DNA of 64,000 nucleotides from Octopus vulgaris (lineage: Eukaryota): contig OX597816.1 in NCBI GenBank assembly GCA_951406725.2, positions 117,552,001-117,616,000 on the forward strand, in the 5' to 3' direction. Positions 11,775 through 44,534 of the stretch are shown here, one piece after another. The position numbers and the translations under genes are program-made. A model generated the notes under the pieces. It saw nothing but the letters and a program-made list of their open reading frames with translations, did no database searches and was not told the origin of the DNA. Every line of letters starts with the position of its first letter. Position 1 is the first letter of the stretch.

Positions 11775-12128
11775 TTAAAAAAGGAGATGTGGAACACGAG
11801 TTGTGATATATAAAAAAAGGAAATGAAGAAAATGCTGACAAAATAATTTAAGTAAGGGAGAGTGTATTTAATTAGGTGAAAGTTCTTTTTACCGGTTGCG
11901 CATTTGTTATGCTTATCAAAAGATATTTTGAGTGAGATAAAGTTCCTTTCTGATTGATTTTTTTCTCTTATCTAAGAGAAAAAATCAATCAGAAAGGAAC
12001 TTTATCTCTCTTAAAAAAATATCTTTTGATAAGCATAACAATGCGCAACCGGTAAAAAGAACTTTCACCTAATTAAATACACTCTCCCTTACTTAAATTA
12101 TTTTGTCAGCATTTTCTTCATTTCCTTT
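11775..12128. mobile_element. Palindromic insertion (~155-bp arms, 2-nt spacer) in a microsatellite; probable PLE pseudo-LTR with a degenerate HHR
   Basis: Arms 11816-11970 and 11973-12128, extra outer ~40 bp on the left, flanked by (CTAT)n/(TA)n and (TA)n. Contains tcttttgataa-gcat aaca atgc-gcaa-ccgg-ta-aaaaga. Confidence 0.7.
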
Positions 12129-12926
12129 ATATATATATATATATATATATATATATATATATATATATATATATATATATATATATATATATATATATAT
12201 ATATATATATAGGCAATCTATATCTCCATCTTAACGTGGACGTTGTGCTAGAACTGAGAATAGTCCGTTATTTACATTGAAAGGACCTCTTATGTGGACC
12301 CAAAGAAAATATACTTTAGACAATCTGAAGTTATGAATACAAAATGCTTAAATTTGAAAAATACGGTATTTGTTGTTTGTAACAGATATTGTTGGGAACT
12401 GTGTAAAAGTGTGTAAAAATGGTATTGCGAAGTCATAGAAAAGCTACTTTGGTAAAATGGCAGTAATATAAGGTGCATTTATTTTAAAGTGCAAGTGCAT
12501 TAATTTTCGCTATATAGACGTAAAAAAGAGAAAGTATCAAATTGAAGACCGTTGTGCAAAATACGTATTTAAATAAGTATATAATGTAAATCAAATCTAC
12601 TATATAGCCTACATACGTATTGGAAATTTATATCAGTTGTTATTAGGTATACGAAAAATATTTTATATATGAAAACAATGTAGTAAGATAAAGTGCGGTA
12701 AGTATGTTAATAAACAATTTGTTACTCCAGCCTCTTTATTTATGCGGTAATGTTATGAAAAACTTCTACGAACACGTGGTCTCTCTCTCACACACACAAA
12801 CACACACACACGTGTAATTATATATCATACACATACACATATATGTATATATCCATCCATCCATCCATCCATCGATACATACATAGATACATGCATGAGC
12901 ATATATATATATATATATATATATAT

Positions 12927-13520
12927 AACAACAAAGGTGAATAGGGGTATATTATATAATATATAAGATAAATCGTTGATTTACCGAAAGTAGCTATGCT
13001 TCCAGATAGAGCAGACCAACTACTTGGTGTCAGTTGGTACCAGCTCTAAATGAGAAGGTGAGATTTATCATATATGTCATTTAAAAACACCCATATTCGC
13101 TTTTGTTGTTCAAATCAAACTCTACTGGTATTTCTGGATTATATGTGTTAACCCGTTATCGTTTTATTTATGCAAGTTACTTAAACCATAAATGTGTTCT
13201 GCCCTCTTTTTTCTTTTTGTCTGCATTGTCTAAGTATGTCATCTGCTGAAGAATAACGGAGGAAAATTGCGACGCTAATGACGCCTATTGATGTAGAAAG
13301 CTGTCTTTTTTCTTAATGGCATGTCAGTTTTAAAAATTCTTACTTCTTGAGTTCAAAACCTCTTTTCATTAGGATTTGGTACCTCTTTTCATTAAGATTT
13401 AGTATCTCTTTTCATTAAGATTTGATACCACTTTTCATGAGGATTTGGTACAAATTGCTACCAAGTATTTATCTTGTCTCTATTTAATATACCCTTATTC
13501 ATTTTTGTCGGTCAAATATA
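12927..13520. mobile_element. Old PLE-like pseudo-LTR remnant with inverted ends and an internal 23-bp tandem repeat
   Basis: 12930-12975 is an imperfect reverse complement of 13467-13510. Four copies of acctcttttcattaggatttggt at ~13358-13450. Degenerate CTGAAGA...GAAAGCTGTC. Shares cttggtagcaatt and gacatgccattaa words with 47380-47480. Confidence 0.45.
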
Positions 13521-13529
13521 TACTTTATC

Positions 13530-13918
13530 TTTTAGCTTTTACTTGTTTCAGTCAGTAGACGGAGGCCATGCTGGGGCACGGGCTTCAGGAATTTTGAGTC
13601 GAAAGATTTGACCTCAGTACTTATATTTTTTTAAAGAACTTATTCTAACTTTTGCAGAACCGCTAAGTTATAGGGACGTAGACACACCAACAGCGGTTGT
13701 CAAGCGGTGGTAGGGACAAATACAAAGACTCGTGCGCGCATACATACTCGTTCACGCTCAAACATACGATGGGCTTCTTTCAGTTTCCGTCAACCGAATC
13801 CACTCACAAAACTTTGGTCAGCTCTAGGCTATAGTAGAAGACACTTGCCCAAGGTGTCATGCAGTGAGACTGAACTCGGAACCATGTGGTTAGGAAGCAA
13901 GCTTCTTACCGTACAACC
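13530..13918 (-). mobile_element. SINE family A
   Basis: Reverse-complement match: ttttacttgtttcagtca...cttctttcagtttccgtc...aagacacttgcccaaggtg...aaccatgtggtt. Confidence 0.8.
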
Positions 13919-15036
13919 GTATATCTACATATCTAGATAAATACACACGCATGTACACACATACACACATGCGCTCACGATTGTGTGCATGAATGCATGT
14001 GTAAATACGCGCATATTAGACAACGTAGGCTTCAACGAATCTTTTAGAATTAAATCCTTTAATTTTGGTGGAAACAAGCAAGATGGTTGGTTGTATGTGA
14101 AAGAACTTGAAAATATTAACTTGTAACCCTTAAAGTAACATTATGCTATCATGATACTGTGTCAAATTGTCAAATGAATAACGTGTATGTGTGTAAACTA
14201 CAATTTGTTATTGACAACATGTTGGTTAATGTTACTGCAGCAGAAATATAAAGTTAAACAGCATACTCTAGAAAAACACCAGATAACAACCATTTTAAAA
14301 GAGATTGTGTGAAAATGTGTGAATAAAAGCTAGATAATGAAAAGTTATCAAAGATTGAAATCACGCAATCAAAGAAACGAGAATAGAGCAATCTTTTAAG
14401 AATTGACTTCAAGCCAATCAATTCTTTTAAACGAAATAATACGTAAAAACAAACGTAATTCAGATTTAATTTTATCTTATTTATATTGCGGTTCCTTTTG
14501 TTGTCATTTCGAATTCACATATCTGAGTTATAATGCAACTGAGTATCAAGGTTCTTTTTTTTTCTTTTACAACAGAGAATATTCATTTACTGTTTTTCTT
14601 AGTTGGTTAAACATCTTTTATATATATTCAGGATTTTTTGTAAGATTTCTGTAGTTTATAACAGTGTTTATCTCCCTTGATCTTATTTTATTTTCACAAA
14701 CAACTTGAAATAAACTGCATATAACAATTATGATCGATAGAATTTTTTATTTTGAATTTAGGTTGTATATAAAACATAATTAGAATCAAACACACACACA
14801 CACACGCACACACACACACACAAATATATATTTATAGATTTAAAATATTTATAGATAAAAAATACGCATACACACACACGTATGTATGTATGTATGTATG
14901 TATGTATGTATGTATGTATGTATGTATGTATGTATGTATGTATGTATGTATGTATAATGTATGTATGTATGTATGTATGTATGTATGTATGTATATATGT
15001 ATATAGATGCATGTCCATACATATATATGCAGGTAG

Positions 15037-42698: not shown

Positions 42699-43139
42699 CT
42701 ATTTAAAAGCCAGATAAGTGTAACGCCGCCAATGGGGGCATCGAAAAGCCGACTGTAAAAGTCCGTTTACCATCCGGCCTCTGGCAAACAAAATATGGAA
42801 GAGTTCGGAGACACAAAGGTTGCACTGCCTTCTGCCCCTATCAAATGGGAGGGCCACCGACAAAATTGACCATTCCAGCCTGTAGCTTGAGTTCGTATCC
42901 TTCAGTCGCCATATTAGCTTGCTGAGTCCCGTGGTCTGGCGCTTGTTCATGTCCCGAAAAGTTGCGTAATGGTTGGAGACTCGCAAAGCCAATCTTGACG
43001 ATGAGGCCCCTACATAAGTGAAGACATCTGAGTCCGTGTAAACCTTGCATTGGTAGACGGCGTTTTTGATCTTGGAGTTCGCCGACGTGAATCTTATTCT
43101 GCTAGGATTAGTTTCTGAAATTAGAACTGCGTTCCTGTC
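42699..43139 (-). CDS. GIY-YIG endonuclease domain (C-terminus of a PLE polyprotein), 5'-truncated
   Basis: The open frame extends upstream of the track ORF: DRNAVLISETNPSRIRFTSANSKIKNAVYQCKVYTDSDVFTYVGASSSRLALRVSNHYATF...LSKLIWRLK...EWSIL...CNLCVSE...CPHWRRYTYLAFK*. Shows AVY/YVG, R..H and CxxC..E motifs. Confidence 0.85.
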   Translation of the reverse strand, partial: DRNAVLISETNPSRIRFTSANSKIKNAVYQCKVYTDSDVFTYVGASSSRLALRVSNHYATFRDMNKRQTTGLSKLIWRLKDTNSSYRLEWSILSVALPFDRGRRQCNLCVSELFHILFARGRMVNGLLQSAFRCPHWRRYTYLAFK

Positions 43140-43140
43140 C

Positions 43141-43233
43141 TATTTCTTCCTGAAGAGAAAGACACATTATGGTCTCATTATTCAATCGGATTTTGGTAAA
43201 TTGTGCCTTTCGAAACACGTGTAGAATGAAATA
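43141..43233 (+). ncRNA. Type I hammerhead ribozyme in the inverted pseudo-LTR
   Basis: tatttcttcCTGAAGAgaaagacacatt...attgtgcctttcGAAACACGTGTAgaatgaaata. Confidence 0.85.
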
Positions 43234-43540
43234 AAACGATTTCTGTTCAATCTTCGTTCAGCTCCATTTCTTCAATTCACCAATAATATTTTAATTTCAA
43301 TTATCCGCACCAACGCACGGTTGCAACACCATATGGTTGTACCTCCATCCGTGCTGTTTTCTGCTGTGATTTTTGCTACCAAGGTATCGGTTAAACTTTT
43401 GATTAATCTGCTACAAGATTATTCATCTTTCTATTTCACATAATATATATATATATATATATATATATATATATATATATATATATATATATATATATAT
43501 ATATATATTCATCTATATATATATATATATATATATATAT

Positions 43541-44001
43541 GGGAAAAATATAAGTTCAAAAAGAACAATTCAAACTTTTTGAGAGGTCCAAAAAGAGAGA
43601 TTAATGATTTCTAATAAAGATTCATCATATTCATAAAAAGCAGCCAGAGCAAGTAATATCAATATGAGAATAGTAGTTGAAAAATATCGTTATAGTTATA
43701 AATATACTATAAACATGTATAAAAAATGGAGGAGAAAAAGATGTTGAATCAAAATTAGATTTAATGCAAAATTGGATTCAATACATACGCATATTTTAAT
43801 GGACAATACAAATATGTAAGAAAAAAATTATAATCATAGTAATTATAATTTTTTTCTTACATATTTGTATTGTCCTTAGAAACGTGCGTATGTATTGAAT
43901 CCAATTTCGTATTAAATCTAATTTTGATTTAACATTTTTTTCTCCTCCATTTTTTATATTTGTTTATGGTAGATTTATACCTATAACGATATTTTTCAAC
44001 T
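43541..44001. mobile_element. Older palindromic insertion (~160-bp arms, ~130-bp one-sided extension) in (TA)n
   Basis: Arms 43675-43834 and 43842-44001 with scattered mismatches; (TA)n flanks. Confidence 0.7.
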
Positions 44002-44534
44002 TATATATATATATATATATATATATATATATATATATATATATGTATATATATATATATATATATATGTATATATAGTATATATATATGTATGTATATA
44101 TATATGTATATATAGTATATATATGTATGTATATATGTATATATGTATGTATATATATATATATATATATATATATATATATATATATATATTAGATTAT
44201 CTCCCTTATACCGAAAAATATCTTATTACCACCCCTGTTTGGAACTCTTCTACATCACATCATAGCGAAGAGAAGACACAATGTCGGTAGCGAAGAGAAG
44301 ACACAATGTCGGTAGCGAAAATACGAAACCGGTTATTTCTCCAAAAACATGACGACGATTTTAATGTTTTTAACCATATAATACAAGCCTTCTGTAGTTT
44401 TTTCATTCTATTTTGCTTTTTATACATCCAACCACGTGCCTTCCCATACCAAATCTCTCACCTATATATATATATATATATATATATACACACATGTACA
44501 CACACACACACACACACACACACACACACACACA

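Follow-up and report, generated by a model that had tools for sequence, protein, structure and literature searches.

The window, a 64,000-nucleotide stretch of the Octopus vulgaris contig OX597816.1, carries five clear insertions, at 11.8, 22.5, 40.6, 42 and 43.5 kb, that are built as head-to-head inverted repeats and fall into four unrelated families. The foldback at 11.8 kb (11817-12127) has arms of about 150 bp; its right end adjoins (TA)42, and a tail of 41-42 bp (11775..11816, minus strand) adjoins (TA)7 on (TATC)n. At 22.5 kb, arms of about 215 bp (22525-22964) have (TA)30 on one side and, on the other, a 49-50 bp tail (22965..23013, plus strand) followed by (TA)25. The 43.5 kb insertion combines 160-bp arms (43675-44001) with a 134-bp tail (43541..43674, minus strand). 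The foldback at 40.6 kb spans 40787-41380, and the 42 kb insertion has inverted arms on both of its flanks (41954-42099/43138-43283). All five have a tail on one arm only, an inverted 5′-truncated copy, and one short and one long end. The first-pass annotation had described these loci as palindromes next to (TA)n with one arm extended by 40-160 bp; the inverted repeats with their short and long ends are real, the extensions measure 41-162 bp, and all ten ends have (TA)n no more than 3 nt away, although that annotation may have picked the loci by their (TA)n. For a random point, the chance of lying no more than 5 nt from the edge of a (TA)6+ run is about 0.012. Symmetric inverted-repeat elements at 34605-35372 (mariner-type HTH) and 44537-45404 likewise have TA-rich flanks, so that such flanks are not diagnostic. 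Short palindromes at 20217, 30771 and 36948 are without TA flank, tail or hammerhead. Any target-site duplication would be masked by the (TA)n on both sides of the insertions.

BLASTN on the masked window revealed no mutual similarity among the sequences at 11.8, 22.5, 29.6, 40.6/42 and 43.5 kb, which are therefore treated as separate families, the 40.6 and 42 kb insertions together forming family A. Arm-to-arm substitutions amount to 0/292 at 40.6 kb, 1/140 at 42 kb, 2/148 at 11.8 kb, 6/211 at 22.5 kb, 14/160 (9%) at 43.5 kb and 13/67 at 29.6 kb, indicating insertions of different ages. At least six dissimilar sequences had been proposed, including decayed cases at 29.6 and 12.9 kb. Beside the four families, the 29.6 kb locus (29550..29781) fits this architecture, with a decayed foldback (29550-29707, 71%) and a one-sided extension of about 75 bp up to (TA)7. 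The sequence at 12.9 kb was rejected as a member: the inverted repeat at 12928-13109 is 47 bp long (79%), its spacer reaches 87 bp, only one flank has (TA)n, and our tolerant score gave no hammerhead match. Several related pieces lack a foldback. Heavily decayed fragments of reverse transcriptase (RT) and GIY-YIG endonuclease (EN) of Hydra type (24346..25802, plus strand) end near TA-rich DNA. Two inserts between TA runs carry partial hammerhead signatures, one at 44193..44462 (plus strand, with a 25-bp tandem duplication) and one at 29797..29987 (plus strand), which is 69-75% like the former and, compared with it, breaks off about 55 nt sooner. At 41860..41893 (plus strand), again between TA runs, lies a short duplicate of the 43.5 kb element's tail end.

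Family A provides the most complete anatomy. The foldback of insertion 1 consists of 292-bp identical arms with a 10-nt spacer and a 3-nt microhomology at the junction; its right arm stops at a short site before (TA)n, while the other continues into a tail of 160-162 bp (40625..40786, minus strand), which contains a stem-loop (fold z -2.9) and adjoins (TA)n. No read spanning this copy was seen. Insertion 2, with a 2-nt microhomology at its junction, has a long arm (41957..43139, minus strand) comprising a 5′-truncated endonuclease ORF, the 3′ UTR and a hammerhead, which has no tail and stops at the short site. Its short arm (43138..43441, plus strand) comprises a hammerhead, the pLTR end and a tail of 158-160 bp, followed by (TA)49. 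Both insertions use the same short end and the same long end. The arms within each insertion share three alleles, and these alleles differ between the insertions. Since in insertion 2 the ORF is found in one arm alone and the tail in the other alone, neither arm duplicates the other. A pyrimidine-rich motif common to short and long ends is a suggestive lead at 43.5, 11.8 and 42 kb, where 1 of 270, 2 of 170 and 6 of 276 other positions, respectively, match it equally well; it is not supported at 40.6 kb (21 of 431 positions as good) or 22.5 kb (39 of 241).

The ORF of insertion 2 (42699..43139, minus strand, 146 open codons) encodes a C-terminal GIY-YIG endonuclease of Hydra type (CxxC..E..N..CxH). 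A full HMMER search returned 2597 relatives at E<=0.001, the named ones being octopod RT-EN proteins, and Y, G, R, H and E are invariant in 24 of 24 aligned rows; a word-index search for longer homologues had found none, and Pfam gave no match on this endonuclease or on the full RT-EN relatives. The RT is truncated away at 42 kb, and RT motifs are present upstream in P0151, an O. sinensis relative with 68% identity, and in P0015. A C-terminal position, the absence of CCHH, and CxxC and CxH flanking E and N fit the alignment and description of the Hydra clade, which resembles family A also in its 3′ type I hammerhead and (TA)n target (PMC8557442). Unlike that clade, family A has tails of up to 162 bp and is without the CxCX5C linker: no Cys occurs among the 28 residues that precede the first conserved Tyr, nor is there such a Cys upstream in relatives P0001-P0004 and P0151. 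The linker is present in 51 of the 89 matches with enough upstream sequence, and relatives of family A have a long Asn-rich spacer in its place. For this reason we file family A as Hydra-like and not as a typical Hydra member. A Naiad or Chlamys identity (N-terminal EN, no canonical hammerhead) was rejected, as in family A the EN is followed by a stop, a UTR and a canonical hammerhead. Identity as a non-LTR retrozyme was set aside because no head-to-tail hammerhead tandem occurs among the 115 repeats listed (to 60.1 kb) or among direct repeats, and as a MITE or Tc1-mariner element, with symmetric terminal inverted repeats, because the five insertions are asymmetric. The suggested linking of palindromes to RT/GIY-YIG ORFs thus succeeds for family A and for no other family in the window; those at 11.8, 22.5, 29.6 and 43.5 kb are provisionally assigned to the Penelope-like retroelements (PLEs) by architecture and partial motifs.

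Hammerhead ribozymes had been reported in most of these palindromes, which overstates what is present. A strict descriptor yielded nine rows, four of them without core mismatch and all four in family A. The canonical type I hammerhead at 41250..41323 (plus strand), with long stem II and palindromic stem III, has further copies at 40844-40917 and 42014-42087 (minus) and 43150-43223 (plus). We also compared a tolerant score with dinucleotide shuffles of each arm; it was devised after inspection of the arms, so that the shuffle fractions are optimistic. The family A score was reached by 0/1000, 0/1000, 0/500 and 0/500 shuffles. At 22.5 kb (0/1000 and 1/1000), a hammerhead-like variant at 22756..22785 (plus strand) has a non-canonical A3-U8 core with one extra base in the GAAA box, a 10-nt palindromic stem III and a 5-bp stem I; its mirror copy runs from 22738 on the minus strand. 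The 11.8 kb motif is borderline (12/1000 and 4/1000, and 14-19 of 640 shuffled tiles match its score): a degenerate hammerhead-like sequence with U3-A8 core, altered GAAA box and palindromic stem III at 12026..12054 (plus strand), mirrored at 11890-11919 (minus strand). The right arm at 43.5 kb holds a 3′ half only (43878-43889; 21/1000), and a different weak site lies in the tail (3/1000). At 29.6 kb the motif is not significant (96/1000 and 50/1000), and by eye one can recognise a decayed motif whose intact parts differ between the arms. Folded as monomers, most motifs do not adopt the hammerhead fold, which is the expectation for dimer-type motifs. Among the 150 of 195 Rfam matches listed, all fell below the gathering score and none was a hammerhead family; nearly all were microsatellite look-alikes of miRNA models, and the scan is uninformative for minimal hammerheads.

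To place family A beyond the window, contigs from four runs of four studies (4 of 24 listed runs; runs with small word shares set aside) were aligned to it, giving 7529, 2611, 2591 and 336 aligning contigs per run. Fourteen of the 15 joints listed (36 in all) are other head-to-head junctions of the family; each rests on one contig per run with a short side of 23-30 letters at 85% likeness, which is weak, and the far ends of these copies are outside view. At these 14 junctions the arm starts differ by tens of bases to over 700 nt, and in five of them the right arm begins within the tail. Loose contig ends reach (TA)n at the short end (four contigs) and the long end (one contig). Among 46 related metagenome loci, a hammerhead is found in 22 of the 33 with enough 3′ sequence. 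Eleven loci form one family, seven ending at a short site, three about 60 nt further and one running into the tail up to the contig end. A foldback was seen in only one of the 46, on contigs that are short; it is a head-to-head piece (L027) with a tail on the inverted arm.

We interpret the palindromes as 5′-truncated insertions of several endonuclease-bearing, Hydra-type PLE families made by paired priming, a reading to which we give a probability of roughly 85%. Three proposals of the first pass, PLE origin, a (TA)n target and double priming, find support in the GIY-YIG ORF, the (TA)n targets published for Hydra families, the two-site ends and the junctions. The flanks, together with in vitro work on a lizard PLE, suggest that the GIY-YIG endonuclease would cut both strands of (TA)n. 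Element RNA of a single allele may then be reverse-transcribed from each of the freed 3′ ends, with one start at a fixed short site and the second a tail-length further on, at a fixed long site; for family A, both fixed sites were observed. Both cDNAs would stop early and probably be joined in head-to-head orientation by the 2-3 nt of microhomology seen at the junctions. As truncation is usually severe, the hammerhead-bearing 3′ end is left twice, pointing outward, with one arm tailed. The hairpins and ribozymes would be by-products.

An alternative that we consider unlikely, albeit the best of the rivals, is that a single cDNA or antisense RNA folds back and extends, the endonuclease then resolving the hairpin unevenly to leave a one-sided tail. 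Such a snap-back would agree with the spacers of four of the five insertions, which are no longer than about 13 nt and have short microhomology, and with the alleles shared by the arms of an insertion; self-priming has been proposed for Adineta vaga (PMC3846280), and an EN-mediated tail was suggested by Craig et al. (PMC8557442). It is opposed by insertion 2, in which neither arm contains the other, unless later trimming of one arm rescues the model, by the wide spacing of arm starts at the 14 listed junctions, five of them inside the tail, and by the two RT start sites observed in vitro. On balance the junctions favour two priming events over simple snap-back. Somewhat less probable still is that the 11.8, 43.5, 29.6 and 12.9 kb sequences are foldback DNA elements, MITEs, or repair hairpins at fragile (TA)n, as their weak or partial hammerhead scores and the (TA)n location of the window's mariner-type elements might suggest. 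This explanation fits 12.9 kb best; elsewhere it is countered by one-sided tails, short spacers and pyrimidine-rich ends resembling family A, by motif halves that read outward and sit where expected in both arms, and by the MITE-like elements of the window being symmetric with long spacers. Assembly or sequencing fold-back artefacts, which the identity of the 40.6 kb arms (292/292) and the unseen spanning read would allow, are highly improbable and can be rejected for the class as a whole, given that other arms diverge by 1-19% with indels, two insertions end at the same two sites, and junctions of the same type recur elsewhere, at many positions across the four studies and also on an unrelated metagenome contig.

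Much of this anatomy is standard for PLEs. Of 27 Hydra families in Craig et al. 2021 (PMC8557442), 26 are listed with a (TA)n target, among them Hydra-1_Obim of Octopus bimaculoides; the authors also described for PLEs an inverted 5′ copy with a one-sided tail, and listed Penelope-13_HM with an inverted 5′-truncated copy. The window's motifs were not found in their supplement and the Hydra-1_Obim hammerhead is different, which makes ours other families. PAc of Anolis (PMC11167929) and the Adineta vaga Penelope (PMC3846280) likewise have inverted pLTRs, an optional tail on one inverted arm, an AT-rich target and two RT start sites bounding the tail; unlike family A, they have an EN of a different clade and tails of 30-40 bp. 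In both of these elements the start of the ORF is overlapped by the pLTR and tail. The A. vaga Penelope also carries Asn-rich inserts between RT and EN, as do relatives of family A. Frangieh et al. showed that a PLE protein cuts and extends both strands, with RT starting at two sites that bound the tail.

The motifs resemble the minimal PLE hammerheads of Cervera and de la Pena 2014 (PMC4209133), whose accessible text describes type I ribozymes with palindromic stem III and a natural U3-A8 variant, and attributes opposite-strand hammerhead pairs 100-700 bp apart to truncated PLEs; the 22.5 kb combination of A3-U8 with an extra GAAA-box base was not found in that portion of the paper. Non-LTR retrozymes (bioRxiv 10.64898/2026.07.22.740005) are also short non-coding PLE-derived units with type I hammerheads, but they form head-to-tail tandems whereas the octopus pairs are head to head. 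Because (TA)n targeting, 3′ hammerheads, inverted 5′ copies and the one-sided tail are all published for PLEs (PMC8557442, PMC3846280, PMC4209133, PMC11167929), we regard the octopus insertions as of a known kind and not as a new system.

LINE-1 twin priming is comparable in that cDNA is primed from both target strands and its products are joined through microhomology. It differs in that the second primer anneals at an internal position and the segments are free of overlap; the arms described here both begin at the 3′ end or close to it, at two fixed sites. The new details are tails that reach 162 bp where published ones measure 30-40 bp, a short and a long end in five of five insertions, junctions that point to two priming events, and a linker-less family in (TA)n.

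As to the host, protein matches assign it to Octopus sinensis, a cephalopod, as the first-pass annotation had considered. The idea that these palindromes seed introns gained no support: a check of 115 frames of at least 62 aa detected no host exon between 1 and 59.9 kb, and the only host ORF, at 60037-63891, consists of a single exon. Loci with the capacity to form long dsRNA make up an exceptional share in octopus, and in lizards Penelope undergoes heavy hyper-editing, according to a study whose repeat analysis left octopus out (PMC5625713). In one run guessed to be RNA, mismatches (A>G 7, T>C 8 vs G>A 13, C>T 9) resemble those of DNA-type runs, and contigs of a multicopy family cannot show editing, so that these counts speak neither for nor against it.

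These insertions add unannotated octopus PLE families to the catalogue, and their junction anatomy bears on how PLEs make inverted structures, favouring two priming events. A family without the zinc linker that is nonetheless found in (TA)n challenges the proposal that this linker directs microsatellite targeting. At its most far-reaching, and as a distinctly speculative prospect, octopus might harbour a Hydra-like lineage, high in copy number and recently active, that locates (TA)n without the linker and, by paired priming at a short and a long site, mass-produces near-perfect 150-300 bp hairpins as a main source of its unusually abundant long dsRNA and reported hyper-editing, with some families having a working non-canonical core (A3-U8, GAAA insertion). 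Given the abundance of long dsRNA in octopus and the hyper-editing of lizard Penelope, the share of that dsRNA contributed by PLE foldbacks is a cheap and testable question.

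The palindromes in the window are real. Self-BLASTN after masking of simple repeats, limited to inverted arms of at least 100 bp with a gap below 400 bp, returned seven loci. At four of them (11817-12127, 22525-22964, 40787-41380 and 43675-44001) the arms form a nearly perfect foldback, the spacer being no longer than about 13 nt. In the other three the spacer exceeds 100 bp; these are a pair of dispersed repeats at 6.4 kb, one element at 33.5 kb and one at 44.5 kb that is MITE-like. The 42 kb insertion (41957-43441) is the fifth and holds a 1-kb core between inverted arms. In all five insertions a single arm carries an outward tail, of 41-42 bp (11.8 kb), 49-50 bp (22.5 kb), 160-162 bp (40.6 kb), 158-160 bp (42 kb) and 134 bp (43.5 kb), and (TA)n lies no more than 3 nt from 10 of 10 insertion ends, where about 1.2% per end is expected by chance. 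The arms diverge by 0-9% in these insertions and by 19% at the decayed 29.6 kb locus. Different families gave no alignment to each other by self-BLASTN of the masked window. The first-pass annotation was right that mutually dissimilar sequences share one architecture of long inverted repeats with a short spacer, one extended arm and (TA)n flanks. Its decayed case at 12.9 kb lacks support as a member, having 47-bp arms at 79% identity, an 87-bp spacer and no hammerhead match by the tolerant score; this locus resembles a repeat at 47.3 kb. The two sites (12949-13303 and 47310-47661) form an old repeat of about 70% identity, parts of which are direct at one site and inverted at the other. Short palindromes of 47-76 bp at 20217-20292, 30771-30817 and 36948-37011 have no TA flanks, tails or hammerheads.

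The surrounding DNA is AT-rich, with abundant microsatellites. A single-exon ORF at 60037-63891 (+) encodes an acidic protein of 1287 aa from no known family, which aligns to an Octopus sinensis protein with 100% identity across 500 residues and 99.4% across 1287, and which has relatives in other octopods. No other host exons were detected among 115 stop-to-stop frames of at least 62 aa in 1-59.9 kb, a search that short exons would escape; two of these frames matched Pfam, both as mariner-type transposase pieces. Decayed mariner/Tc1-type transposase fragments lie at 18099-19219 (-) and 27706-28053 (+), and two symmetric inverted-repeat elements occupy TA-rich tracts, one with a Mos1-type HTH remnant (34605-35372) and one with 376-bp arms at 87% (44537-45404).

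The 40.6 and 42 kb insertions belong to one family, here family A. On its minus strand the 42 kb copy carries a GIY-YIG endonuclease (EN) reading frame open for 146 codons, after which come a stop, a UTR and a hammerhead. HMMER recovered 2597 EN relatives at E<=0.001; three of ten relatives looked up had names, with O. sinensis and Argonauta as sources, and longer relatives have reverse transcriptase (RT) motifs upstream of EN. The EN pattern, CxxC..E..N..CxH with CCHH absent, is that described for the Hydra clade of Penelope-like elements (PLEs) in PMC8557442, whose Hydra alignment agrees by eye with family A and whose supplement lists (TA)n as the target of 26 of 27 Hydra families. However, the CxCX5C linker, one of the defining features of Hydra and found in 51 of 89 EN matches with sufficient upstream sequence, is absent from the family A protein and its closest relatives; in the relative P0151, Asn makes up 25% of the 166 residues preceding EN and Cys is missing. 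P0151 and two other octopus proteins labelled uncharacterised or kinase-like (P0001, P0003) are family A pieces with an Asn-rich spacer. The hammerhead of the O. bimaculoides Hydra member in the same supplement is unlike the window's, and six short window or protein motifs had no match in the supplement text available, where line breaks or cut runs could mask matches. The proposed PLE origin is supported for family A, which we file as Hydra-like. A second, decayed RT-EN remnant of Hydra type lies at 24346-25802. Overall, truncation and head-to-head insertion of Hydra-like Penelope retroelements explain the palindromes well.

Hammerheads are less general than the claim that most palindromes bear a full or partial one. 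A perfect core under a strict type I descriptor occurs at four places, the four family A copies, all reading outward from the junction. A tolerant score, devised after inspection of the arms, was compared with dinucleotide shuffles of each arm: it was equalled by 0/1000 or 0/500 for family A, 0/1000 and 1/1000 for the two 22.5 kb arms, 12/1000 and 4/1000 at 11.8 kb, and 21/1000 at 43.5 kb, where only half of the motif is present, with no significance at 29.6 kb. Since the score is post hoc and its 11.8 kb value of 26 was attained by 14-19 of 640 shuffled tiles, the motif stands out for family A and 22.5 kb only. In the 22.5 kb motif the 3-8 pair is still Watson-Crick (A3-U8), and the GAAA box of both arms contains one additional base, a variant that could be typical of the family or a product of decay; natural U3-A8 variants (PMC4209133) and a U13a insertion have been published. 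PMC4209133 also describes minimal hammerheads that occur as pairs 100-700 bp apart on opposite strands and ties them to truncated PLEs. Another hammerhead, at 32983-33012 (-), has a canonical core and a 4-nt palindromic stem III without a foldback; it points toward (AC)n at 32816-32900, about 80 bp off, and probably marks the 3' terminus of a further PLE family.

How such insertions arise is best seen in family A. Both copies have an identical tail-less (short) end on one arm and an identical tailed (long) end on the other. Three alleles are common to both arms within each insertion and differ between insertions, so both arms derive from a single template allele and a single event, unless they were homogenised afterwards. 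Self-priming on an antisense template (PMC3846280) or uneven hairpin resolution (PMC8557442) is possible for the short-spacer cases. Simple fold-back copying is contradicted by the 42 kb insertion, where the ORF arm has no tail and the tail arm no ORF. Junction microhomology is 3 nt at 40.6 kb and 2 nt at 42 kb. In PMC11167929, a lizard PLE protein in vitro cut and extended both strands of AT-rich DNA and started at two RNA sites bounding the tail. Taken together with the contigs described below, this evidence favours two priming events, which would occur one on each target strand, in keeping with the double priming first proposed. L1 twin priming offers a comparison system. The 42 kb insertion is flanked by about 35 bp duplicated in inverted orientation (41860-41893 and 43541-43576). 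This sequence is the tail end of the adjoining 43.5 kb element and represents a very small insertion in its own right or else a local copy from integration.

Contigs from four sequencing runs of four studies showed that family A is high-copy (7529, 2611, 2591 and 336 aligned contigs), mostly at least 95% alike in the three large runs. Among 15 of the 36 joints, one had normal pseudo-LTR continuity and 14 were head-to-head at other positions; the right arm begins within the tail in 5 of the 14 head-to-head junctions listed. Loose ends enter (TA)n in four contigs at the short end and one at the long end. As single contigs with short sides, these joints were weighed as supporting, not decisive.

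A metagenome scan with the RT-EN relative P0041 recovered 46 loci, and 22 of the 33 with at least 180 nt past EN had a hammerhead score of at least 29. In one family of 11 loci, seven stop at a short site, three about 60 nt further and one enters the tail; short ends often adjoin ATT-type repeats, which means that (TA)n is not the only target. A foldback was visible in 1 of 46 loci, many contigs being short; L027 contains an inverted head-to-head piece whose inverted arm carries the tail. Tails of different Hydra-type families at eight loci (L001, L005, L009, L019, L023, L024, L035, L037), 3' of the hammerhead, have in common a short conserved motif within a stem-loop, which is not evident in the octopus family A tail.

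We found no publication on these octopus foldbacks, on PLE twin priming or on a linker-less Hydra family in literature that left most subscription journals, Repbase and Dfam outside reach. PLEs are edited in lizard (PMC5625713); contigs, which are uninformative on editing, had no A-to-G excess in the one run presumed to be RNA. Two dispersed short-repeat families, 70-93% alike and in both orientations, occur at 788-946, 9640-9786, 10358-10508, 11512-11671, 13764-13918 and 17938-18100, and at 5644-5811, 6391-6868, 15494-15707, 52209-52419 and 53320-53531; where inverted copies lie close together, they could also give rise to dsRNA. Family A and the other palindromes represent a variant of a known element type, to which our analysis adds some useful mechanistic detail. 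If the palindrome loci are transcribed, long hairpins would be predicted to form.
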